This document shows positions 5,324-39,728 of a DNA stretch of 41,181 bases, piece by piece. The stretch covers positions 1 to 41,181 of IMG/VR virus record IMGVR_UViG_3300031825_000032. One strand, written 5' to 3'. Every line of letters begins with the position of its first letter. The stretch's first letter is position 1. The notes beneath the pieces were generated by a model, which was not told the DNA's origin, made no database searches, and was given only the letters and a program-made list of their open reading frames with translations. The position numbers were made by a program, and so were the translations under genes. This stretch comes from a virus.

Positions 5324-5802
5324 GGACGGATATTACACGGCAGCAGATTGCGGCCATCGTCGCGATGATAGAGGCGGAAGTCGGCGACGACGATCAGCTT
5401 CTTCTCGATACACTCGAAGGCCAGACCGACATCTTCGAAGTCACCGCCCGCCTGCTTCGCCAGTGCGAGGATGACGAGGGCATTGTCGCCGCGCTCGATC
5501 AGCAGATGAACGCACGCAAGGACCGAAAGGCCCGCGCGAACGCCCGTATCGAGGCGCGGCGCAACGCCATCGCAGCACTCATGGAAACGGCCGGCATCGA
5601 TAAGCTCCCGCTCCCTGAGGCGACGGTATCGTTTCGCAAGATCGAACCGAAGGTCATCGTCATCGACCCGGACAGCGTGCCCGATGAATACTGCACGTTC
5701 GTTCGCAAGCCTGACCTGGAACTCATCCGCGAGGCAAGCCCGCCGCCACCCGGCACGGGTTACGACAACGGCGGCAACAGCATCACCGTGAGGCGGAAAT
5801 GA
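5320..5802 (+). CDS. Siphovirus Gp157-like protein (accessory to the recombination module)
   Basis: ATGA overlap. Pattern KLPLPEATVSFRK...VIDPDSVPDEY is typical of the Gp157 family. Sits directly upstream of the annealase. Confidence 0.7.
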   Translation: MRTDITRQQIAAIVAMIEAEVGDDDQLLLDTLEGQTDIFEVTARLLRQCEDDEGIVAALDQQMNARKDRKARANARIEARRNAIAALMETAGIDKLPLPEATVSFRKIEPKVIVIDPDSVPDEYCTFVRKPDLELIREASPPPPGTGYDNGGNSITVRRK

Positions 5803-6485
5803 TTGGCGATAAAATCATTAACGGCCTGAAAGCCGAGTTCCCGCGCGAGGCTGTAAGCTGGCGCGCGCAGTCGGTCACGCAGGACGGAACGAAAGCGCTG
5901 GCGCTGGCCTACATCGACGCTCGCGACGTGCAAAACCGCCTTGATGAGGTCGTCGGCCCCTTCAACTGGAAAGACCGTTTCGAGTTCCACGGCGCGCGCA
6001 CAATTTGCTACATCGCTATTCGCTTCGGAGACGAGTGGATTGAGAAGGGTGACGGGGCTGGAGACAGCGACGTTGAGGCCGAGAAGGGTGCCATTTCTGA
6101 TGCTCTGAAGCGTGCAGCCGTGAAGTGGGGCATTGGCCGCTATCTGTACGACATGCCGTCCCCGTGGGTTCCCTGCGAAAGCTATGAGCGCAATGGAAAG
6201 AAGCACTGGAAAAAGTGGGCGGCGGACCCTTGGCAGTTCGTAAAAGGTAGGCCGACTGCGCCTCAGTCCATAGGCGGCACTGAGGAATTTCCTGGGACGT
6301 CTGACACGTTCAAAACACTTGCCTCCGGCCTCCGCGAGACATTGACGGAAGCGGAGCGCACGATCTGGCTGGACGAGCATAAGGCGCATTGCGCGAACTT
6401 GCCCGACCGCGAACGCGATCTGATGCGAGATGTCGCCAACATGCACAAGAGGACGCTTAGGCAGGTCGCGCAGGTGGCCGCATGA
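5799..6485 (+). CDS. Rad52/Sak-type single-strand annealing protein
   Basis: EKGAISDALKRAAVKWGIGRYLY hallmark; ATGA overlap. Confidence 0.8.
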   Translation: MIGDKIINGLKAEFPREAVSWRAQSVTQDGTKALALAYIDARDVQNRLDEVVGPFNWKDRFEFHGARTICYIAIRFGDEWIEKGDGAGDSDVEAEKGAISDALKRAAVKWGIGRYLYDMPSPWVPCESYERNGKKHWKKWAADPWQFVKGRPTAPQSIGGTEEFPGTSDTFKTLASGLRETLTEAERTIWLDEHKAHCANLPDRERDLMRDVANMHKRTLRQVAQVAA

Positions 6486-13215: not shown

Positions 13216-13955
13216 GCCGCACCGTCATCCGCATGACGATCGAGGACGCGGAGCATTACTCGCCGGAGAAGCGCGCGGAGATTATCGCAAGCTACCCGGC
13301 GCACGAACGCGAGGCGAGGGCAAAGGGGATCCCGACGCTTGGCTCGGGGCGTGTGTTTCCCGTGTCTGAAGAGGCGATCAAGGTTCCTGCGTTCGCGATC
13401 CCGGATCACTGGGCGCAGATCGGCGGTCTCGACTTCGGTTGGGATCATCCGTTCGCGGCGGTGAGGCTGGCGCACGATCGGGATGCCGACATTCTGTACG
13501 TCGTGAACAGCTACGGCGTGCGGGAGCAGACGCCGGTGTTCCATGCTGCTGCACTGAAGCCGTGGGGTGACTGGCTGCCGTGGGCATGGCCTCACGACGG
13601 ATTGCAGCACGACAAGGGCTCAGGCGAGGCGCTGGCGCATCAATACCGCGATCAGGGGCTGAACATGCTCCACGAGCGCGCAACGTTCGAGGATGGCGGC
13701 TTCGGCGTCGAGGCTGGTGTTGCCGATATGTTGGACCGGATGCTGACGGGCCGATGGAAGGTGTTCGATCACCTTGAGGACTGGTTTTCTGAATTCCGAA
13801 TGTATCACCGGAAGGAAGGGTTGATCGTGAAGCTCATGGACGATCGGCTCTCTGCCTCCAGGTACGCAATGATGATGCGCCGCTATGCGGACACGCCGCC
13901 GTCAGCGAGCGCGGCGGTGCCTGTCTATCGTGGCGCCGGAGGGTGGATGGGCTGA
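13212..13955 (+). CDS. terL: Terminase large subunit, nuclease half, as a separate ORF in the -1 frame
   Basis: ATG 13212 overlaps TGA 13213-13215. Contains IGGLDFGWDHPFA and KLMDDRLSASRY nuclease-domain motifs. Confidence 0.8.
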   Translation: MSRTVIRMTIEDAEHYSPEKRAEIIASYPAHEREARAKGIPTLGSGRVFPVSEEAIKVPAFAIPDHWAQIGGLDFGWDHPFAAVRLAHDRDADILYVVNSYGVREQTPVFHAAALKPWGDWLPWAWPHDGLQHDKGSGEALAHQYRDQGLNMLHERATFEDGGFGVEAGVADMLDRMLTGRWKVFDHLEDWFSEFRMYHRKEGLIVKLMDDRLSASRYAMMMRRYADTPPSASAAVPVYRGAGGWMG

Positions 13956-15985
13956 TGGACGATATTGTCAAGGAAGCCCGTGAGGCGTTCCGCGTCGCCG
14001 AAGAGGCATCGCGCGATAACCACGCCGCTTACAAGGAGGACGTGAAGTTCGCGCGCCTCTCCGATCAGTGGCCCGAAGAGGTGCTGAAGGAGCGCAAGAA
14101 TCCACCCCGGCCTGCGCTCACAGTGAACAAGCTGCCGACGTTCATCAGGCAGGTCGTGAACGATAGTCGCCAGAACAGACCCGCGATTTCTGTACATCCT
14201 GTCGATGACAGCGGTGATCCTGAGACGGCGGAGGTTATGTCTGGGCTCATTCGCAATATCGAGGTGAGTTCGAACGCTGACGTAGCCTATGATACGGCAA
14301 TCGAGTGCGCGGTTGGCGGCGGCTTTGGATACTGGCGCATCAATCTCGAATATTCGTGCGATGACACGTTCGACAAGGACATTGTGTTTGACCGCATCGC
14401 CGACCCGCTCTCGGTGTTTGGCGACCCGAACGATTTCGGCGCGGACAGCGCGGATTGGAATCTAGCGTTCATCGTCACGCAGATCAAAAAGGCGGACTTC
14501 AAGCGCAGGTACAAGGGCGCGCAGGAGACTGACTGGGACGAGGCGACGTGGCAGAACCTGACTGCGCCGTGGATCACTGACGAGGCTATTCAGGTCGCCG
14601 AGTATTGGAAGCGCACGGAGGTTGAAAAGCGCATCCTTGGCCTGACTGACGGTTCGATCATGGCCGAAGACGAGTACGTGCGCTTGCGTGACATGCTCGC
14701 GGCGATGGAAGTGCCGGTGTTCGCGGTTGAGGGGCAGTCGCGCATCGTTCGGTCCTACAAGGTCGAACAGCATATCGTGTCCGGCGCCGAGCCGCTTGAG
14801 AAGGTGGACTGGGCGGGCAAATACATCCCGATCGTCCCCGTGTACGGCGATGAGGTCATCATCGAGGGGCGGCGTCATTGGCGCTCGCTGATCCGCGACG
14901 CGAAGGACGCGCAGCGGATGTTCAACTACTGGCGCACGACGGCCACGGAGATGGTCGCGCTGGCGCCGCGCGTGCCGTACATCGGGCCAAAGGGCGCGTT
15001 CAAATCGGATACCTCGAAGTGGACGACGGCGAACAGTTCAAGCCACGCCTTTATTGAGTATGACGGACCTGTTCCTCCGCAGCGTCAGCCGTTCAACGGT
15101 GTGCCTGCCGGGGTCATTCAGGAAGCCCTGAACTCGTCCGACGACATGAAATCGGTGATGGGGCTTTATGACGCCTCGCTCGGGCGTCAGTCGAACGAAA
15201 CGAGCGGCAAGGCGATCATGGCTCGCCAGCGCGAGGGTGACATTGCCACCTTCCACTTTATCGACAACCTGACCCGCGCCATTCGCCACAGCGGCAAGAT
15301 ACTGATCGACCTGATCCCGAAGGTCTACACGCAGGACCGCGTTATCCGCGTACTTGGCCCCGACATGAAGCCGAAGACGGCGCGCATTGCCGGAGACGTC
15401 CCGCCCGATCCCAAGGCACATATCTATGACATCGCGGCGGGCAAGTACGATCTGACCGTGAAGGCGGGGCCGTCGTTCACCACGCGCCGCGAGGAAGCGG
15501 CAACGCAGATGATCGAGCTTATGCGGGCCATGCCGGACGCTGCGCCGATCATTGGCGACCTGCTCGCGAAGAACCTCGACTGGCCGGGCGCCGACGAGAT
15601 CGCCAAGCGCCTTGAGAAGATGTTGCCGCCCGGCATGAAGGACGAAGAGACCGGCGAGCTGCCGCCCGAGGTTCAACAGCAGATGCAGCAGATGGCGGAG
15701 GCCATTCAGGTGCTCGGCCAGAAGCTGCAAGAGGCTGAAAGCGGGCTGGTGATTGACCGTGAAAAGCTCAAGATCGATGCCGCGAAGGTTGGTGTCGATC
15801 AGTACAAGGCAGAGACCGATCGTATGCAGGCCGTCGCGCCTGCGCTGTCGCCGGAACAGGTGCAGGCGATCGTCATGCAGACTATCGGCGATCTCCTCGC
15901 CGACGCGCAGCTTCCCGAAGCGGAAGAGGGTGCAATGGGGCCAACCGCGATGATGCCGGAGCCCGACATGGTGCCCGCCTACTAA
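13955..15985 (+). CDS. Portal protein
   Basis: TGATG overlap. DQWPEEVLKERKNPPRPALTVNKL...VVNDSRQNRPAISVHP...GGGFGYWRI pattern. About 677 aa, follows TerL. Confidence 0.88.
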   Translation: MDDIVKEAREAFRVAEEASRDNHAAYKEDVKFARLSDQWPEEVLKERKNPPRPALTVNKLPTFIRQVVNDSRQNRPAISVHPVDDSGDPETAEVMSGLIRNIEVSSNADVAYDTAIECAVGGGFGYWRINLEYSCDDTFDKDIVFDRIADPLSVFGDPNDFGADSADWNLAFIVTQIKKADFKRRYKGAQETDWDEATWQNLTAPWITDEAIQVAEYWKRTEVEKRILGLTDGSIMAEDEYVRLRDMLAAMEVPVFAVEGQSRIVRSYKVEQHIVSGAEPLEKVDWAGKYIPIVPVYGDEVIIEGRRHWRSLIRDAKDAQRMFNYWRTTATEMVALAPRVPYIGPKGAFKSDTSKWTTANSSSHAFIEYDGPVPPQRQPFNGVPAGVIQEALNSSDDMKSVMGLYDASLGRQSNETSGKAIMARQREGDIATFHFIDNLTRAIRHSGKILIDLIPKVYTQDRVIRVLGPDMKPKTARIAGDVPPDPKAHIYDIAAGKYDLTVKAGPSFTTRREEAATQMIELMRAMPDAAPIIGDLLAKNLDWPGADEIAKRLEKMLPPGMKDEETGELPPEVQQQMQQMAEAIQVLGQKLQEAESGLVIDREKLKIDAAKVGVDQYKAETDRMQAVAPALSPEQVQAIVMQTIGDLLADAQLPEAEEGAMGPTAMMPEPDMVPAY

Positions 15986-16912: not shown

Positions 16913-18133
16913 ATGGCAAATTCAACTCTTACGATCGATGTCATCGCCAAAGAGGCGCTGATGCATCTCGAAAACAACCTCGTCATGGCCAAGCTGGTTC
17001 ACCGGGCTCACGAAAGCGAGTTCAAGGGCAGCATCAACGGCTATGAGAAGGGTGAGACCATCACCATCCGCCGCCCTGCCGACTTCACCGTCCGCGACGG
17101 CGCCGTGTCGGTCAATCAGGACGTTGTCGAAGGCAGCACTTCGCTGACCGTCGACAAGCAGAAGGGCATCGATTTCGGCTTCACCTCGAAAGAGCTGACG
17201 CTGAACATCAGCGACCTTTCCGATCGCGTCATCAAGCCCGCCATGATCCAGCTCGCCAATCAGGTCGATAAGGACATCATGGCGCTCTACACGTCGGTTC
17301 CTAACTGGGTTGGCACGGCGGGCCAGACGATCAACTCGTTCGCGGACTTCGCGAAGGGGCCGGAGCGTCTGGACGAGTACGCCGTACCGCAGGAAGGCCG
17401 TGCCGCCATCCTGTCCCCGGCTGATCACTGGGCACTGCTCGGTTCGCAGACCGCGCTCTATATCCAGGACGCGGCGAAGGGCGCTTACCGCAACGGTTCG
17501 CTCGGCATGATCGGCGGCGTTGACACGTACATGTCGCAGAATGTCCCGGCGCATATCGTCGGTTCGGACGTGACCACTGTGACGGTCAACCAGTCGGTGA
17601 CGACCTCGACGCTCGCCTATGCAGACGTGAAAACCACGATGCAGCAGACGATCACGATTGCCGGCGGCACTCTCAATCCGGGTGACGTGTTCACCATCGC
17701 GGACGTTAACGCGGTGAATCCGGTGACGAAGGCCGACCTTGGTTTCGCCAAGCAGTTCACGGTGGTTTCGTACAGCTCGAACACCCTCGTGTTCTACCCG
17801 GCGATGATTTGGACCGGCGCGTTCCAGAACGTGAAGGTCACGACCGGCGTTACCGACCTGAACACGAAGGCGATCACCGCCATCGGCACGGCGGGAACGA
17901 GCTATCGTCAGAACATGGTGTTCCACAAGAACGCCTTCGCGCTGGCGATGGTGCCGCTGATCGCGCCTCCGGGTGCGCCTGAAGTGTCGCGTCAGTCGTA
18001 CAAGGGAACGAGCGTTCGCCTCATCCCGACCTATGACGGCACGAACGACAAGTCGAACTATCGACTTGATATCCTTTACGGGGTGAAGGCGATCGATCCG
18101 CGACTTGCAACCCGTCTCTCCGGCACTTCGTAG
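16913..18133 (+). CDS. Major capsid protein (P22 coat-like family)
   Basis: 406 aa. N-terminal LTIDVIAKEALMHLENNLVMAKLVHR...GETITIRRPADF pattern. Followed by a strong hairpin. Confidence 0.85.
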   Translation: MANSTLTIDVIAKEALMHLENNLVMAKLVHRAHESEFKGSINGYEKGETITIRRPADFTVRDGAVSVNQDVVEGSTSLTVDKQKGIDFGFTSKELTLNISDLSDRVIKPAMIQLANQVDKDIMALYTSVPNWVGTAGQTINSFADFAKGPERLDEYAVPQEGRAAILSPADHWALLGSQTALYIQDAAKGAYRNGSLGMIGGVDTYMSQNVPAHIVGSDVTTVTVNQSVTTSTLAYADVKTTMQQTITIAGGTLNPGDVFTIADVNAVNPVTKADLGFAKQFTVVSYSSNTLVFYPAMIWTGAFQNVKVTTGVTDLNTKAITAIGTAGTSYRQNMVFHKNAFALAMVPLIAPPGAPEVSRQSYKGTSVRLIPTYDGTNDKSNYRLDILYGVKAIDPRLATRLSGTS

Positions 18134-28724: not shown

Positions 28725-28956
28725 TCTAATCCTTTCGCAAAGGGTCGAGAAATTGGAATCCACCATACGCGAGCAAGGCGCGAAGCTCGACACGATCATG
28801 GAGCGGACGGAGAGGTTCGACGACCTTGACGATACCATCCGCACGCTCGGGAAGGTGGCGAGCGGCATACACAAGATCGCCAAGTGGTTCGCACCTATCA
28901 TTGTCGTGATCGGTGCGGTGGCGGGGCTCTGGGCGACCGTGCGGGGGATCAAGTGA
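28717..28956 (+). CDS. Holin candidate, 79 aa (coiled-coil N-terminus, one C-terminal TM)
   Basis: WFAPIIVVIGAVAGLWATV TM segment. Immediately upstream of, and overlapping, the endolysin gene. Confidence 0.55.
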   Translation: MSDLILSQRVEKLESTIREQGAKLDTIMERTERFDDLDDTIRTLGKVASGIHKIAKWFAPIIVVIGAVAGLWATVRGIK

Positions 28957-29456
28957 GCGCCAAGCTCTATGCATGGAGCGCGGCCGCTATGGTCACGTTG
29001 GCAACCCCACTTGTGGCTGAGTGGGAAGGTTACAGCCTCAAGCCTCGCTGGGACCGGATCGGCGGCGTCATGGACGTGTGCTACGGCGACACCGAAGCCG
29101 AGATGCGCGAACACACGAAGGCCGAATGCCTGGGGCTTTTGCGCATCCAGCTCAGCAAGCGCGGGGACGCCATCGCCAAGTGCGTACCGGGCCTTGTGGA
29201 GCGGCCGACAGTTTGGGCGGCGGGTACGTCATTGGCGTATAATGTCGGCGTTCCCGCATTCTGCAACAGCACCGCCGCGCGCCGGTTCAACGCCGGCAAC
29301 TGGATCGGCGGCTGCGAAGCGTTCAAGATGTGGGTCAAGGCCGGCGGTAAGTACGTCCAAGGTCTCGCCAATCGCCGATATGCCGCGAACGACGGGCGGA
29401 TTCCCGAATACACCATCTGCATGTTGGGCCTTGGCGCGAATGTGAGCGTTGCATGA
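28953..29456 (+). CDS. GH24 phage lysozyme, probably SAR-type endolysin
   Basis: GTGA overlap. AAAMVTLATPLVAEWEGYSLKPRWDRIGGVMDVCYGDT has the catalytic E...D...T layout. Confidence 0.85.
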   Translation: MSAKLYAWSAAAMVTLATPLVAEWEGYSLKPRWDRIGGVMDVCYGDTEAEMREHTKAECLGLLRIQLSKRGDAIAKCVPGLVERPTVWAAGTSLAYNVGVPAFCNSTAARRFNAGNWIGGCEAFKMWVKAGGKYVQGLANRRYAANDGRIPEYTICMLGLGANVSVA

Positions 29457-29896
29457 CCGCCCTCCGCTACTGGCGCGAGGCCCTGTTCGTCGCGTTCGTG
29501 ATCCCGCTGACGTTCGTCTGCTGGGTGCGGGGGGAGCAACTGGATGCCGCGAAGGAGTGGCAGGGCAGTGTGATCGCAGCGCTCACCGAAGCGTCGGGCG
29601 CGGAGAATCCTGTCGCAAAAAAGAACGTGACGGCGGGCATTCGCGCTCTCGGCAAGTCGGTTGACCGGCTCACGGTCGCGGTCGCTGAACAGAACGCCGC
29701 CGTCGCCACACTCGCGCGCACGGCGGCAGAGAGGCAGAAAGCATCACAGGATGCGCTACGGGCTGCGGAGAAGCGCAACGAGGCGCTGGCGGGCAAGATT
29801 GCCGGTCTGGAGCGTAGCGCGTCTATACGGCGCTCTGACGGGGTTGTGTGCGAGGTGAGCGAGGCTGTTAGCGAGGTGTGGGCGTCCAACCCGTGA
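29453..29896 (+). CDS. i-spanin (Rz-like)
   Basis: ATGA overlap. N-terminal TM (ALFVAFVIPLTFVCWV) followed by coiled coil. Confidence 0.7.
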   Translation: MTALRYWREALFVAFVIPLTFVCWVRGEQLDAAKEWQGSVIAALTEASGAENPVAKKNVTAGIRALGKSVDRLTVAVAEQNAAVATLARTAAERQKASQDALRAAEKRNEALAGKIAGLERSASIRRSDGVVCEVSEAVSEVWASNP

Positions 29897-30053
29897 GCAG
29901 AGCCTCAACCAGCACCTCGACAGGCCCCGGTATCTCGCGGTCGCCCGCCTCCCATTTGCGGATGGTGCGCGCATCACAGCGCATCAACGCAGCGAGCCCG
30001 GCCTGCGTTAGGCCGAGCTGCTGGCGACTTGTCTTAAAGGCCGTTGGCTGCAT
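29868..30053 (-). CDS. Small XRE-family HTH regulator, 61 aa (Aca-like or immunity-like)
   Basis: LGLTQAGLAALMRCDARTIRKWEAGDREIP. Overlaps the small upstream ORF by 20 nt and the i-spanin 3' end by 29 nt. Confidence 0.75.
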   Translation of the reverse strand: MQPTAFKTSRQQLGLTQAGLAALMRCDARTIRKWEAGDREIPGPVEVLVEALLTGWTPTPR

Positions 30054-30216
30054 CGCACGCCTGCAAGGTCACATCGTTGCCGTTCATGTCCAGCACGCGG
30101 CGCAGGTTGCCCGTGTGGGCGGACTGGTAGACCTTGCCGGCCGCTTTCAGCGTGCGGTGACGAGAAACCAGCGAAGTGTCCTGCTGTTCGGCGTTCGCGT
30201 AAACCGTGTACTGCAT
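30034..30216 (-). CDS. Small ORFan, 60 aa (MQYTVYANAEQQDTSLVSRHRTLKAAGKVYQSAHTGNLRRVLDMNGNDVTLQACDAANGL)
   Basis: GGGAGA SD 6 nt before ATG 30216. First gene of the two-gene minus-strand operon. Confidence 0.6.
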   Translation of the reverse strand: MQYTVYANAEQQDTSLVSRHRTLKAAGKVYQSAHTGNLRRVLDMNGNDVTLQACDAANGL

Positions 30217-30263
30217 TTTCATTCTCCCGTGTCCGGTGGGCTGAGCCCGTTTCTGATGAACAA

Positions 30264-30292
30264 TACATAGGCCCATTGGGCCGCACGTGCAA
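30264..30292 (-). promoter_or_regulatory. Promoter of the small-ORF/HTH operon: TTGCAC-N17-TATGTA, with palindromes in the spacer
   Basis: Plus gtgcaa at 30287-30292 and tacata at 30264-30269. GGCCCATTGGGCC at 30270-30282, GCACGTGC at 30283-30290, GGGCTGAGCCC at 30238-30248. Confidence 0.55.
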
Positions 30293-30304
30293 GGACTAAA
30301 TGCG

Positions 30305-30559
30305 ATGCGCGCGATTTTTTTTCTGCTGCTCCTCGGGGCCTGCGCTTCCAAGCCCGCAATTGAAGTCCGAACGGTGCGTGTCGAGGTGCCGGTGCCGGTT
30401 GCGTGCGTTGCGGCTGCCGATGTTCCCGAGCGCCCCGGTCCGCTTCCACCGCGTCCAGAGGATGCACGGCAGGCGCTTGATCTGGCTGTCGCGAAGGTGC
30501 TGGAATGGGTTGGTTATGGCGAACGGGCGGATGCGGTGCTGCGGGGGTGCACTGAGTAG
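30305..30559 (+). CDS. Lipoprotein, o-spanin (Rz1-like) candidate, 84 aa
   Basis: MRAIFFLLLLGAC lipobox. Pro-rich mature part with Cys residues. AAGGA SD. Confidence 0.6.
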   Translation: MRAIFFLLLLGACASKPAIEVRTVRVEVPVPVACVAAADVPERPGPLPPRPEDARQALDLAVAKVLEWVGYGERADAVLRGCTE

Positions 30560-30742
30560 GACTGGCTCAGGGGGCAGGTGGCGGTGGAGCGCCACTAAGT
30601 GCGCTGAAATTCACAAGCAATCGTAGTGCGTTATATCGCAGTTGCCACTTAAGCTCAATCGGATGCGCTTAAGTGCGTAGCCGCTCACAAACCCGCCCTC
30701 CACGATCATCAACGGCGCTTGATGTTATTTGGTGAGGGGCAA

Positions 30743-34039: not shown

Positions 34040-34357
34040 TCAAGCACTTGCATGTTTATCCCCGCTGTTATCCCGATACCCGTCCGCAGTTTTTTCCGCA
34101 ATCTCATCAGCCTGTGGGGGTGCGGGTAGGGCTTGCCAGTAGGCCACGTCCGTGCGCGATATCCAAACATCATCCTCGCTCATTCCAGCGGTCCAGTCGC
34201 ACCAGCTGTAGCTCTCTACGTCCCCGACTCCAGCGTAGACGTCACCCCAAAAGCCGACGAATATGTGCGTCTCGTAATCTTCTCTGTGCGCCTTACGGAG
34301 CAGAAGTAGCATTTGATTGTTCTTCGGCGCCGTCTCAATCGGTTGCCACTCACCCAT
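34040..34357 (-). CDS. DUF551-like protein, 105 aa
   Basis: WQPIETAPKNN... and ...VAYWQALPAPP motifs. Overlaps the int stop by 8 nt. Confidence 0.65.
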   Translation of the reverse strand: MGEWQPIETAPKNNQMLLLLRKAHREDYETHIFVGFWGDVYAGVGDVESYSWCDWTAGMSEDDVWISRTDVAYWQALPAPPQADEIAEKTADGYRDNSGDKHASA

Positions 34358-35414
34358 GAGCCTTCTCCTTCATCCTCCGCGCCTCCAGCTTCGCCACAGC
34401 ATTATCCGACAGGCTTGCGGTCATCGCCTGATACGTGTCCAGCATGGCGTTCACGGTCTGCACGGTCCAGCCGAGAACGGCAGCGATTTCCTGCGGTGTG
34501 CAGCCCGCCTCCGATAGCGTCGTGCAGGTCGTGCCGCGCAGGTCATGGAAGTGCAGGCCGTCGCACCCGGCAGCGAGCGTCGCCTTGCGCCAGTGGTGCT
34601 GGAACGTGATCTGATGCCACGGCTTGTTGCCGGGCCCGGCGAGGATGGTGGCGCATGTGCGCGGCGCGGCGTCGAGGACGGCTTTCAGGGACTGCGTGAC
34701 AGGCATATCGACGAGCCGGTGGCGCTTGCCCTGCCGGAACCGGATGCGCGTTCCGTCATAGCTGGACCATGCCAGCTTGAGCACATCGGCCTGCCTCTGC
34801 CCCGTGCCTAGCGCCAATTCGAACGCGAGGCGCATGTCGGCGGGGGCCGATTCGCGGAACCGCTCGATGTGCGGCGGAAGCCATAGCTTGTCCGATCGGT
34901 CGGCCCGGTACACCTTCTTTGGCCGGATCGCGTGGTTGATGCCGATGCGCCCGCGATTCCTCGCCCACTCCAGCACGACGCGCAGGACGGCCATTGTGCT
35001 GTCGGCCTGCCGCGGGGACGCCTTGGCGAGCGTGTCGCGCCAGTCGAGGAACCGGCTGCGGATTTTCGGGTCTTCGATCGCTGCGAGCGGGTAGTTGCCG
35101 AACTTCGCCTCGATCCGGGCGATGTGCTTCAGGTAGTCGGCTTTCGTGCGCGGTGCGAGGCGGGTATAGTCGGCCGACTTCGTGTAGTCGTGCGTCAGTT
35201 CTTTCAGCGTGCCGGAGCGGCTGGCCTTGATCGGCGCATGGATCGCGTCATTGTACGCGCGCATGAACGCAGGCGTGCCGGGCGCGAAAGCCTCGCTCTC
35301 GTCGCCGGGGAGGGGGCGCAGGGCGCCGAAGCCGCGCAGGTACCAGTAGACGGCCACCTTGCCGCCCTTGCGCGCCTTACGCGTCTCATAGACCCCTTTA
35401 AGCCGCGTGCGCAT
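34350..35414 (-). CDS. int: Tyrosine integrase
   Basis: GTGQRQADV (Arg), HFHDLRGT (H-x-x-R), LDTYQ (Tyr). ATG 35414 (the ORF opens at TTG 35429). Confidence 0.92.
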   Translation of the reverse strand: MRTRLKGVYETRKARKGGKVAVYWYLRGFGALRPLPGDESEAFAPGTPAFMRAYNDAIHAPIKASRSGTLKELTHDYTKSADYTRLAPRTKADYLKHIARIEAKFGNYPLAAIEDPKIRSRFLDWRDTLAKASPRQADSTMAVLRVVLEWARNRGRIGINHAIRPKKVYRADRSDKLWLPPHIERFRESAPADMRLAFELALGTGQRQADVLKLAWSSYDGTRIRFRQGKRHRLVDMPVTQSLKAVLDAAPRTCATILAGPGNKPWHQITFQHHWRKATLAAGCDGLHFHDLRGTTCTTLSEAGCTPQEIAAVLGWTVQTVNAMLDTYQAMTASLSDNAVAKLEARRMKEKAHG

Positions 35415-35649
35415 TCTCGTATTCCTCAAGGGGCGATAGCTTCCGCCCGCCCGTTATGCCCTGCTTACGATCGAGCAGGTAGTCATGCGCCTTCACGTCA
35501 TAGCGCGTGGTGCCGGGGACGGGGCCGGGGACGAGCCCGCGATTGTGCCATGTGTCATAGGTCGCATGGCTGATGCCGCCCAGATATTCGCAGATACCGT
35601 CCTTGGTCTGGAGGCGGTGCGCGGGGTCGTAGCGTCGGTCAGCGCCCAT
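35398..35649 (-). CDS. xis: Excisionase-like small HTH protein, 83 aa
   Basis: ATG 35649 with GAGGGAG SD. ICEYLGGISHATYDTWHNRGLVPGPV. Directly upstream of and overlapping int. Confidence 0.65.
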   Translation of the reverse strand: MGADRRYDPAHRLQTKDGICEYLGGISHATYDTWHNRGLVPGPVPGTTRYDVKAHDYLLDRKQGITGGRKLSPLEEYENAHAA

Positions 35650-37744: not shown

Positions 37745-38757
37745 CACTTCCCTCCCGTCATCATGCGCAGAATCTTCGCGCGAGCGTAGGTCGCTGCATC
37801 GGTTGGTGCATCGAATTGCCTCAATGCCTCTTCCAACGCCTCCCGCCGCCCGCGTGCTTCTGCTTCGGTGAGCAAGTTAATCGCGCATCTGTAGACGTGA
37901 TTGCGAGCCTGCCCTTCGGTGTACGACGCGATGTTTCGCGCCCACTGCTCTCTTTGGCAATCGCCATCCGTCACAACAACCTCAGGCGTCGTATCGGCGC
38001 CTTTGATCTCTGAACATGCGTCGTCATGGGTGGCAGGCCATACGTGCGTCTTGGCAGGCTCAGCGGTGCACGACAGCATTAGAGCGCAATCCGGCTCATG
38101 CAGCATACCTATTGCAACGCCGCACGACGGGCAGTTGTAATTCGGATCGTAAGATACCGTTGTCTCTTTAGCAGGCTCAGCGGTGTTGCGTTCCGCTGCT
38201 TTGGAGAGGTTGCGCCAGTTCCAAGCTAGATCAATTCGGCGCTGGCAGGCTTGGCGAGCAATGCCGATCATGTAATCTCGGTCAGATTCCGGCGTTCCAG
38301 TAAAAATCACGCCGCCTCTTTCAAATGCCGCGATTTTCGCAAGGGCGCCATTCAACCGCTCGTTCTCAGCACGCAGCGCGGCGAGTTCGCGTTTGTGTTC
38401 AGACATCTCAATAATTGTATCGTCCCAGCCCTTTCTGGCGTGGCGATAACAATCTTGCCATTCCTGTATTCTAGCATCCTTGCTGGCGATGAGTTCGGAT
38501 ATGGCGGTGCGGAGGTAGGGTATTTGCTTCGGCCCAGTTCCACCAACGTCGTACAGACCACGGCGATACTCATCGGCTAGGGTGTGGCTTGCGAAGGATA
38601 CAGCCATCATCTCCCGCCATATCCTCGTAGCCTCATCGACTTCCGGCGCGGGCGGGGAGAGGCGGTCGAGGATGGCGAGAGATTCCGCAACGTTTTCCGC
38701 CTTGCGGATATTCTCACGCAGCGTCTCGATCTCGGCGGGCCCAAGACTACTTTGCAT
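37744..38757 (-). CDS. Hypothetical mosaic protein, 337 aa (coiled coil, Cys motif, internal TAEPAK duplication)
   Basis: ATG 38757 with GGGAGAG SD. 15-nt gcaggctcagcggtg occurs twice (about 38054 and 38171). Confidence 0.6.
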   Translation of the reverse strand: MQSSLGPAEIETLRENIRKAENVAESLAILDRLSPPAPEVDEATRIWREMMAVSFASHTLADEYRRGLYDVGGTGPKQIPYLRTAISELIASKDARIQEWQDCYRHARKGWDDTIIEMSEHKRELAALRAENERLNGALAKIAAFERGGVIFTGTPESDRDYMIGIARQACQRRIDLAWNWRNLSKAAERNTAEPAKETTVSYDPNYNCPSCGVAIGMLHEPDCALMLSCTAEPAKTHVWPATHDDACSEIKGADTTPEVVVTDGDCQREQWARNIASYTEGQARNHVYRCAINLLTEAEARGRREALEEALRQFDAPTDAATYARAKILRMMTGGK

Positions 38758-39490
38758 GGCGAACTCTCCCGTGATTTGGATGAAACCCAAGCCGCCGCTC
38801 TGCCGATGTCCTCGCCGCTGCGGCCTCTTCCTTCGACGCAAAAGTTCCTAGGTGATGGTGCCGCCTGTTGTATAAAATTCTGGCTATCCATTTCCCAGAA
38901 CGTGCACGACTCACGCCTACAATTCCTGACGTGTTATTGACCGGCATGGCGCAATTTCTTGCGTTCTCGGAAGCCTCTACGTCGCGTAAGTTATCAATGC
39001 GGTTATCGGTTGGGTCGCCGTTTATGTGGTCGATAAAATTATCTGGCCATCTGCCGTAGTGCAGGCACCACGCCACGCGTCCGGCGGCATACGTGAGGCC
39101 AAACATCTTCTCTATTAGATATCTGTGGGCGTTTTTGCGCGTGAACGCTGGGCGTCCAGCAACAGATTTATTAAATTTCATGTACTGGATGTCGTCGCCC
39201 CGCTCTCGCGGCCTCCACGTAAACGTCCCGGTGCCCGGCTCGTATCTCAGCAGTCGGGCGAGCGCTGCCGGACTGAGCCGTGCCTTCCTTTCGCCCGCTC
39301 CCGCCAGATAGTCTCCGCCCTCTGCATTGGCAGCGTAATCTGTCAGCCGGTTTGGATCGGCGGGGTCGTAATACGGATCGGCGTCATGATTGAACTCGAC
39401 AAGGACGGGAACTTTTTCATTCCTGTCTGCCGTCTCAATCGGCATCCAATACTCACTCAGCGCACGCGCGATGTCGGCGGGGTTAGTCAT
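38747..39490 (-). CDS. HNH endonuclease with an AP2 DNA-binding domain and a DUF551-like N-terminus (homing-endonuclease-like)
   Basis: IDHINGDPTDNRIDNLR (HNH). GIVGVSRARSGKWIARILYNRRHHHLGTFASKEEAAAA (AP2). WMPIETADRN at the N-terminus. Confidence 0.8.
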   Translation of the reverse strand: MTNPADIARALSEYWMPIETADRNEKVPVLVEFNHDADPYYDPADPNRLTDYAANAEGGDYLAGAGERKARLSPAALARLLRYEPGTGTFTWRPRERGDDIQYMKFNKSVAGRPAFTRKNAHRYLIEKMFGLTYAAGRVAWCLHYGRWPDNFIDHINGDPTDNRIDNLRDVEASENARNCAMPVNNTSGIVGVSRARSGKWIARILYNRRHHHLGTFASKEEAAAARTSAERRLGFHPNHGRVRHAK

Positions 39491-39728
39491 TGCGGTTATC
39501 CGTGAGCGGGAATTCAAATTCCGGGAAGTCCGCAGAGGACGGCGCCACTTTCCATCCTTCGACATAAAGGCCATCAGGGTAAGGCGGCAGCGGCATTTCC
39601 GGGCACACAATGGTGTAGCGGAAATACGTTGCGCCCGAGTCGCGAAGGGTGGCTGTCATTGCAAGAAAATGGCGCCTTATCGCATTGTTTGTGCACGGTA
39701 GAGCGCGATTGGAATAGTAGTCTGCCAT
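39483..39728 (-). CDS. Hypothetical protein, 81 aa
   Basis: ATG 39728 in a TGATG overlap. Confidence 0.5.
   Translation of the reverse strand: MADYYSNRALPCTNNAIRRHFLAMTATLRDSGATYFRYTIVCPEMPLPPYPDGLYVEGWKVAPSSADFPEFEFPLTDNRND

Follow-up and report, generated by a model that had tools for sequence, protein, structure and literature searches.

A likely acr-aca-type accessory-gene cassette with an Aca10-like regulator between the spanin genes of a P22-like temperate phage

The window (the whole stretch of viral DNA analysed here, 41,181 nt, IMG/VR record IMGVR_UViG_3300031825_000032) belongs to a P22-like, temperate phage that carries a P22 portal, a P22 coat protein and an integrase. In its lysis cassette, two small genes on the minus strand lie between the gene of the i-spanin and that of the lipoprotein o-spanin. 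The first encodes a conserved protein of 60 aa, referred to below as the cargo, and the second a 61-aa helix-turn-helix (HTH) protein of the XRE type that is a putative autorepressor. A first-pass annotation had proposed that this pair resembles the operons in which an anti-CRISPR gene (acr) is followed by an anti-CRISPR-associated regulator (aca). The layout that it described was found again in every respect: both open reading frames (ORFs) with their strand and length, their overlap of 20 nt, the convergent overlap of 29 nt between the HTH gene and the i-spanin 3' end, the site between the two spanin genes (with the o-spanin starting at 30305), the promoter hexamers TTGCAC-N17-TATGTA and all three palindromes. 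The coordinates are collected in Table 1. Other loci are cited by their L numbers and proteins from the databases by their P numbers.

A two-gene cassette inserted between the spanin genes

The genes on either side have the characters of a two-component spanin system, an i-spanin with an N-terminal transmembrane domain and a lipoprotein o-spanin, both near an endolysin gene. The o-spanin matched the Rz-like PHROG 456 (E 4e-5) and, weakly, P2 LysC, and 21 homologues of the i-spanin adjoin endolysins.

Relatives in which the site is empty came from a HMMER homologue search with the i-spanin; pattern scans of viral and metagenome contigs and a tblastn search against phages gave no empty spanin site. 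In L025, L028, L029 and L019 the i-spanin gene is followed by the o-spanin gene after 138-190 nt. The blastn homology between the window and the empty-site relatives L025, L027, L028 and L029 ends at 29881/29885 and restarts at 30338. Because the homology stops and resumes at these points, the 456 nt between them (29882-30337) are foreign DNA, an inserted cassette.

The insertion left its mark on both neighbours. The i-spanin, which ends in VWE, N or K before the stop codon in the relatives, was changed by the insertion to end in VWASNP in the window, and the final five codons of the HTH gene (TPTPR and the stop) are the antisense of the i-spanin 3' end, an overprinting that covers 29868-29896. 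On the other side, residues 1-11 of the o-spanin (MRAIFFLLLLG; 30305-30337) are the antisense of cassette DNA upstream of the promoter, including a tract of eight A that encodes, on the plus strand, the Phe-Phe of the new o-spanin signal peptide; from A12 and the lipobox Cys onward the o-spanin is ancestral. A tract of the same kind, GCAGAAAAAA(T)AATCG, is also present in L019 and L030. Overprinting of their termini on cassette DNA keeps both spanin genes open, and a cassette can in this way land inside an essential lysis module. A landing site at which both spanin termini are overprinted is unusual.

Table 1. Features of the cassette, its flanks and the surrounding phage genome (positions in the window)
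Feature	Position	Strand	Remarks
Inserted cassette, whole	29882-30337	-	456 nt; blastn breakpoints against empty-site relatives
Cargo gene	30034-30216	-	60 aa, conserved; begins MQYTVYANAEQQ, contains HTGNLRRVLD
Aca10-like XRE HTH gene	29868-30053	-	61 aa; putative autorepressor
A8 tract	30315-30322	-	within the cassette, upstream of the -35; putative UP element
Palindrome GCACGTGC	30290-30283		over the -35
-35 element TTGCAC	30287-30292	-	degenerate form of the TTGACA/TTGACC of orthologues
Predicted operator palindrome GGCCCAATGGGCC	30270-30282	either	spacer positions 5-17; abuts the -10
-10 element TATGTA	30264-30269	-	TAT invariant across five aligned cassettes
Leader palindrome GGGCTCAGCCC	30238-30248	-	presumed 5' untranslated region
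Shine-Dalgarno GGGAGA	30223-30228	-	6 nt before the ATG at 30216
i-spanin gene (flank)	29453-29896	+	N-terminal hydrophobic segment
o-spanin lipoprotein gene (flank)	30305-30559	+	N-terminus MRAIFFLLLLGAC, lipobox LLGAC
Phage_lysozyme endolysin (Pfam)	28884-29456		lysis cassette, end of the plus-strand late block
Rad52-type recombinase	5799-6485
P22 portal	13943-15985
P22 coat protein	16913-18133
Integrase	34350-35429

An Aca10-like regulator and its predicted operator

The assignment of the 61-aa protein to the XRE-type HTH proteins was borne out. Its Pfam scores were above threshold, with 29.6 bits for HTH_31 (cut-off 27) and 28.7 bits for HTH_3 (cut-off 23). It is a single-domain protein close in length to the 62-74 aa or so of the Aca10 family, and its AlphaFold2 (AF2) model is a four-helix XRE domain with a pLDDT (predicted local distance difference test) of 94, in which the four HTH helices account for all 61 aa. 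Relatives are encoded on 127 IMG/VR contigs. The top match in the PDB was 7XI5, the Aca10 of Pseudomonas citronellolis, with an E value of 2.8e-6 from the single sequence and of 4.6e-8 from the family profile; the matches after it, which include Aca3, Aca2 and Aca1, were weaker by about four orders of magnitude with the single sequence and about 500-fold with the profile. When the HTH family was aligned by hhalign with six Aca10 homologues taken from the supplement of PMC9410906, the probability was 97.3% and the E value 1.7e-11. The model superimposes on 7XI5 with a TM-score of 0.80-0.86 and a root-mean-square deviation (rmsd) of 1.1. In Aca10, R44 contacts DNA and G49 lies in the dimer interface (PMC9410881); they align with R39 and G43 of the window protein, both of which are invariant in a 12-member alignment of its family. 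The published cut-off for the Aca10 phylogeny is an identity of at least 50% and a coverage of at least 80% (PMC9410906), and the window protein falls below it (44% identity, 74% coverage). By this criterion its sequence places the HTH in a sister clade of Aca10 and not among its members.

The window promoter was taken as real because orthologous cassettes have TTGACA or TTGACC at the same place. The exact 13-mer GGCCCAATGGGCC occurs a single time in the window. A palindrome of this type is kept together with the HTH in L018, L022, L024, L030, L032, L043 and L066, and the symmetric variant GGGCC-N3-GGCCC was found at 16 further loci. At least 24 phage loci in IMG/VR have a promoter of the form TTGAC(a)-N17-TAT with a palindrome in its spacer, located 50-1600 nt upstream of the HTH gene and on the same strand. 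The spacer in these 24 loci follows TTGAC-N(1-4)-[ATA]TAGGGCCAWTGGCCCTA[TAT], or it has the GGCCC-N3-GGGCC flavour as in the window. From them a 19-bp operator consensus, ATAGGGCCAATGGCCCTAT, was derived, with the geometry ATA-N5-AWT-N5-TAT, whose right arm contributes the -10 TAT.

The minimal Aca10 site has been defined by electrophoretic mobility shift assay as ATACGCTCATTGAGCGTAT, and in the acrIC7-acrIC6-aca10 promoter (TTGCAA-N16-TATTCT) the right arm likewise gives the -10 TAT (PMC9410881). The consensus ATAGGGCCAATGGCCCTAT and the Aca10 site have the same symmetry, centre, ends and overlap with the -10, and the predicted operator lies in the spacer abutting the -10 as the IR2 of Aca10 does.

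Protein and palindrome also vary together. The residue before the invariant WE of the HTH protein is K33 in the window; K at this position goes with GGCCC-N3-GGGCC at 8 of 9 loci and R with GGGCC-N3-GGCCC at all 15 (Fisher p 1.2e-5, a value that ignores phylogeny and comes from a table of residues and operators compiled by hand). The switch is seen in both sub-lineages of the HTH, with L019 on one side and L043 and L066 on the other. This co-variation speaks for a recognition helix that reads the palindrome directly, and the HTH dimer is predicted to bind at GGCCCAATGGGCC. If so, position 33 would be the specificity residue, K or R pairing with a GGCCC or GGGCC half-site, respectively.

The other two palindromes fared less well as operators. 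The one over the -35, GCACGTGC, is absent from the relatives except the near-identical L030 and arises through degeneration of the window's -35; it is probably fortuitous. The leader palindrome GGGCTCAGCCC is present and its 4-bp stem (GGGC/GCCC) is kept, with a variable loop (TCA, ACA, AGAC or CTCC), but the role of operator given to it was overstated. As a structured RNA the leader was no more stable than shuffled sequence (z = -0.36), and it had no Rfam match. Published aca10 operons have a predicted hairpin in the 5' untranslated region for which no binding was shown (PMC13551039).

A fixed frame with exchangeable cargo

Compared by blastn with other loci, the cassette is a mosaic. Its promoter and leader (30282-30214) match only the HTH-type loci L018, L019 and L022 (76-89% identity); its cargo (30210-30040) matches only L001, L003, L006, L010, L014, L015 and L017 (68-79%); and its HTH part (30026-29899) matches L018, L019, L022 and L024 (78-83%). 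The same exchange can be followed in place at L030, a relative whose flanks are 91-93% identical to those of the window and which shares its spanin site, promoter and leader, with an HTH 89% identical. Two unrelated genes of 88 aa stand there in place of the 60-aa ORF, and the homology between the two loci breaks exactly at the cargo ATG and picks up again after the first 27 nt of the HTH gene.

HTH proteins 63-89% identical to that of the window are encoded by the last gene of small operons whose upstream genes (one to four of them) differ: genes of 72 and 57 aa in L018, genes of 62 and 68 aa in L019, four tiny genes in L022, two of them for membrane peptides, and in L024 genes of 84 and 257 aa together with a homing endonuclease. 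Taken over the 26 cargo-bearing frames, the pool of 39 cargo proteins falls into 37 clusters, with a median length of about 84 aa, and half of the proteins are acidic. When 38 of the pool proteins were searched against the PDB as one concatenated query, no chain matched at E values up to 0.1, the solved anti-CRISPR (Acr) proteins included. Twelve pool cargos from five frames searched against Pfam, ten of them also against PHROGs, had no characterised domain; the exceptions were the homing endonuclease and one larger protein with HTH matches below threshold.

A few members of the pool deserve a separate description. A single cargo type recurs among the frames (L043, 2145-2504, and L068, 2138-2494); it is about 118 aa long, has an E-G-S-H-R motif and is, by eye, reminiscent of ParB/Srx-like domains. 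The endonuclease ORF of L024 (3559-4222) is of the LAGLIDADG/HNH homing type (PHROG 5046, E 6e-28), and its first 17 residues repeat the N-terminus of the HTH gene downstream; this looks like the insertion of a homing endonuclease into a regulator gene. At 3532-3564 of L022, the block made of the leader hairpin and the Shine-Dalgarno sequence is duplicated before the second cargo gene, and the duplicated block may be a recombination joint for cargo exchange.

The 60-aa ORF of the window is a real gene, strongly conserved and under purifying selection. Its start codon at 30216 was favoured over the alternative ATG at 30222 by the spacing of the Shine-Dalgarno sequence GGGAGA (itself kept in L018, L019, L022 and L030), by the starts of the homologues and by the database call of 60 aa (P0001). 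The family has 55 homologous clusters with 59-87% identity and 19 invariant residues (S..HR.L...G...Q....GNLRRV.D..G.DVT..A..A), H22, R23, R41 and R42 among them. At eight independent loci the ratio of nonsynonymous to synonymous substitution rates (dN/dS) lay between 0.1 and 0.4 for most pairs and did not exceed 0.58, with synonymous sites near saturation. The family is rare: a profile search of 1.84 billion representatives gave about 10 true clusters, after P0059 and P0065 (repeat artefacts) and P0060 (an enolase chimera) had been left out. Among 185,579 species genomes it was found in three, those of Sphingobium lactosutens, Acetobacter sacchari and an Acetobacteraceae metagenome-assembled genome, and it is present at five IMG/VR loci.

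For the conserved family to which the ORF belongs, profile, structure and PDB searches gave no relative of known function. The single sequence had no match in Pfam, PHROGs, NCBIfam or PADLOC, and all 27 family members searched against Pfam and PHROGs gave only a weak recurrent match to the uncharacterised phrog_10496. No match was obtained in a profile search of the PDB, nor in a tblastn search of 50,697 GenBank phages. The AF2 model of the protein (pLDDT 83) is of the order beta-beta-alpha-beta-(beta)-alpha; Foldseek searches with it against the PDB and BFVD gave no significant match (best E 2.9 and 0.09), and the BFVD matches with a prob of at least 0.97 were uncharacterised phage proteins except for one 499-aa entry labelled muramidase. 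Two fusion forms, P0057 and P0061, offered no domain clue. P0061 (119 aa, metagenomic) is a natural fusion of a cargo domain of the L063/L041 type (MFT..NT.G.T.AEL..LN) with the 60-aa domain of the window, and it therefore ties the 60-aa family into the same cargo pool as the L063/L041 type. In P0057 (199 aa) the 60-aa domain is C-terminal and follows a 135-aa region without assignment. Homology of the cargo to AcrIC6 or AcrIC7 was rejected indirectly: AcrIC6 is reported to have a wide distribution that takes in Salmonella (PMC7913775), and hardly any relatives of the cargo family were found.

Elsewhere the 60-aa gene stands behind other TTGAC-N17 promoters, each with a palindrome of its own at the same distance from the start codon: ATGTCGTAAATCTACGACAT in L001, CCCTAAATTTAGGG in L003, TACGCAGCTTCTGCGTA in L006, ATAGGCACAACGCGCCTAT in L015 and ATGCACCCAATGAGTGCAT in L017. 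Palindromes with arms of at least 6 nt occur at -72 to -43 from the start codon, an interval chosen post hoc, at 6 of 8 independent cargo loci against a background of 4.2% (P ~1e-7). Downstream of the gene, L001, L003, L006 and L015 encode a divergent HTH-like protein that resembles HTH proteins below threshold only. In L017 (4406-4867, Acetobacter sacchari) a 79-aa ORF comes after the 60-aa gene, and then a ROS/MucR zinc-finger regulator (Pfam E 8e-9) in place of an XRE HTH.

An acr-aca-type reading and its rivals

Comparison of sequences was sufficient to demonstrate the insertion, the modular mosaic, the cargo swap in situ, the Aca10 homology, the position of the operator and the co-variation of protein and operator. 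Considering these together, we think that the insert at 29882-30337 is likely to be a mobile accessory-gene cassette of the acr-aca type that regulates itself, with inhibition of a host defence as the leading guess for its cargo. The regulatory half of the first-pass reading has gained in weight by the homology to Aca10, the operator in the spacer and the presence of unrelated cargo in the same frame elsewhere, while its other half, the function of the cargo, is something that we can only infer. Counter-defence is our leading guess there because of the architecture of the cassette.

In the mechanism that we propose, the sigma70-type promoter TTGCAC-N17-TATGTA would drive a bicistronic minus-strand mRNA encoding the 60-aa cargo and then the 61-aa Aca10-like HTH. 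A dimer of the HTH would bind GGCCCAATGGGCC, which fills the spacer and abuts the -10, and would occlude RNA polymerase, so capping the expression of both genes. Negative autoregulation, the repression of its own promoter by the HTH, is thus the most likely mode of control on the present sequence comparisons; it has been shown experimentally for the Aca1, Aca2 and Aca10 operons (PMC9410881, PMC9410906). Promoter, operator, leader and HTH would make up the conserved frame, and the genes between leader and HTH would be exchanged by recombination. In this phage lineage the frame would have landed between the spanin genes, antisense to the late operon, and in landing would have re-coded the end of the i-spanin gene as well as codons 1-11 of the o-spanin signal peptide. 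A conserved component of the host or of a competitor would be the most likely target of the cargo.

The acrIC7-acrIC6-aca10 operon of P. citronellolis (7XI5; PMC7913775, PMC9410881, PMC9410906) shows how far the likeness to a known system goes. In both operons, which are made up of short ORFs, the last gene encodes a single-domain HTH_31 repressor of some 61-65 aa. Aca10 is by sequence the nearest relative of the window HTH with a solved structure, and the DNA-contact Arg and the dimer Gly are kept. Both have a palindrome of the 19-bp type, ATA-N5-AWT-N5-TAT, between -35 and -10, whose right arm is the -10 TAT, and both have a palindrome or hairpin in the 5' leader and variable upstream genes. 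They differ in the half-site, which is GGGCC or GGCCC here and CGCTC in Aca10, and in the hosts, which are here alphaproteobacteria (Sphingomonadaceae and Acetobacteraceae) along with metagenomes. The identity, about 44% over 45 residues, is under the published family cut-off, no validated Acr was found in operons of the present clade, and the window copy is antisense between spanin genes. The regulatory design is already known. The regulator here represents a sister clade of Aca10 that belongs to alphaproteobacterial phages, uses another half-site and goes with uncharacterised cargo.

In the Aca1 loci of JBD30-like phages, the anti-CRISPR operon has its own promoter and is embedded in the block of late or structural genes. 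These loci of Pseudomonas Mu-like phages resemble the cassette in that interchangeable acr genes precede a conserved aca and the Aca protein represses through inverted repeats (PMC9410881). Their regulator is of another Aca family, they are co-oriented with their flanks whereas the window cassette is antisense, and their cargo has been validated as Acr by experiment. The C proteins of restriction-modification systems are also small XRE HTH dimers acting on palindromes of their own promoter, and C.BclI and C.Kpn2I were among the structural matches; their genes, unlike the window HTH gene, precede a restriction gene that they activate or repress, and no restriction-modification genes are present here.

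Several observations weigh against the acr-aca-type reading. The promoter, which the first-pass annotation had called good, is weak: it matches the consensus at 6 of 12 positions, a consensus scan detected none, and its -35 is degenerate in comparison with the orthologues. The XRE fold is generic, and HigA2, Aca2, Aca10 and the C proteins superimpose equally well on the HTH model (rmsd 0.9-1.8). The identity to Aca10 comes to 20 of 45 aligned residues, and the hand-made table behind the residue-operator association has to be counted here too. As to the cargo, no protein of the pool resembles a validated Acr within the searches made; the 60-aa protein is mildly basic (isoelectric point 7.9) with an invariant patch rich in H and R, unlike many acidic DNA-mimic Acrs. 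In L010 it is encoded inside another operon, without promoter or regulator, and in L014 it has only a weaker, imperfect palindrome and no recognisable regulator.

The same autoregulated cassette might instead carry a generic moron, acting in superinfection exclusion, as a modulator of host physiology or division, or as a small nucleic-acid-binding regulator. We regard this as possible, if rather unlikely, as an account of the locus. The basic leaning of the cargo and its invariant H22, R23, R41 and R42 would suit it, as would the lack of similarity to any Acr or anti-defence protein in the searches made and the placement antisense to the late genes, which would permit expression in the lysogen; Aca-like regulators, moreover, are often unlinked to known acr genes (PMC9410906). 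On the other hand, small, hyper-diverse and swappable ORFans behind an Aca-type repressor have repeatedly turned out to be Acr or anti-defence genes (PMC7913775, PMC13551039). The conservation of the cargo across unrelated phage backbones (59-87%) points to a conserved cellular target, which is compatible with counter-defence as well as with a moron, and for the function of the cargo taken by itself a generic moron role is nearly as likely as counter-defence. Aca proteins have been argued, in a recent survey, to control anti-defence genes beyond Acrs (PMC13551039).

Much less probable is an antirepressor module with the logic of P22 immI or 186 Tum, in which the cargo would inactivate the prophage repressor and the HTH would silence the cargo in the lysogen. 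The phage of the window is P22-like and temperate, and immI (ant, arc, mnt) of P22 also lies inside late genes with its own small repressors, so that both are small self-repressed regulatory islands in the late region of a P22-like temperate phage. The regulators of immI, however, are ribbon-helix-helix proteins and not XRE HTH proteins, the immI regulator stands upstream of the effector, and the sequences of the two systems show no similarity. Phages that are not P22-like share the present cargo, which is swappable; it occurs on different backbones, some of them without the regulator, whereas one would expect an antirepressor to go with its cognate repressor. The 91-93% identical relative L030 has two unrelated genes at the same site, the same regulator frame bears 37 different cargo clusters, and no similarity to the Ant, Tum, Arc or Mnt families was found in Pfam, PHROGs, NCBIfam, the PDB or BFVD. 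The antirepressor alternative given by the first-pass annotation is thus disfavoured by the cargo swap in situ and by the cargo common to different backbones. An attempt to identify the CI-like repressor of the window phage identified none.

A type II toxin-antitoxin pair arranged as in higBA/mqsRA, where the gene of a small toxin would precede that of the HTH antitoxin, is very improbable. The order and overlap of the genes fit, the promoter contains a palindrome as in autoregulated toxin-antitoxin operons (the autoregulation being predicted here), and the HTH resembles the C-terminal domains of HigA2 (TM-score 0.80, rmsd 1.2), with which it is nearly superimposable, and of MqsA. The 61-aa protein, however, is a bare four-helix HTH without a toxin-binding extension, and its partner is not fixed: HTH proteins 63-89% identical are paired with unrelated genes in L018, L019, L022, L024 and L030, membrane peptides and a homing endonuclease included, and the cargo lacks an HTH partner in L010 and L014. 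The cargo, for its part, had no match to a toxin-antitoxin family in Pfam, NCBIfam, PADLOC or the PDB, and no structural match. The swap of cargo in situ effectively refutes this third option of the first-pass annotation. Equally remote is a regulator of lysis timing (antiholin-like, spanin-modulating or working by antisense control of the o-spanin), which the location between the spanin genes suggests and for which convergent transcription over the i-spanin 3' and o-spanin 5' ends could disturb late transcription, since frame and cargo alike are found at many other sites (beside an integrase, before the terminase, at a prophage end) and related phages lyse with an uninterrupted spanin pair.

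To return to a counter-defence cargo in an Aca10-like frame, guilt-by-association searches for anti-CRISPR and other counter-defence genes start mainly from Aca-type repressors, which have so far been exploited mostly in elements of Pseudomonas, Pectobacterium, Neisseria, Listeria and Streptococcus. To our knowledge almost no counter-defence genes are known in Alphaproteobacteria. The sister clade of Aca10 is found in Sphingomonadaceae and Acetobacteraceae phages as well as in related phages from metagenomes, and its operator and HTH make a cheap and specific search key for dozens of uncharacterised small phage genes, among whose products the 60-aa family is a clear first candidate. Quite tentatively, we suggest that the 60-aa protein (S-x-HR-x-L..G..Q..HTGNLRRV-D..G-DVT) founds a new anti-defence family of alphaproteobacterial phages, possibly an anti-CRISPR one, and that the Aca10-like frame with ATAGGGCCAATGGCCCTAT marks a recombinational cargo slot. 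If this were true, the 37 or more unrelated ORFan clusters would amount to a largely untapped reservoir of counter-defence.

Two features of the window outside the cassette may be recorded. Three motifs of the type CACT(T)AAG(T)G lie at 30591-30677, including an inverted pair (30646-30657 and 30664-30675); they occupy the 183-nt gap between the o-spanin stop codon and the block of minus-strand genes, are not enriched elsewhere in the window and may be a set of regulator binding sites or a feature of an attachment site. A gene for an HNH_3 endonuclease (Pfam E 2.4e-15) occupies 38747-39610, within the early region on the minus strand.

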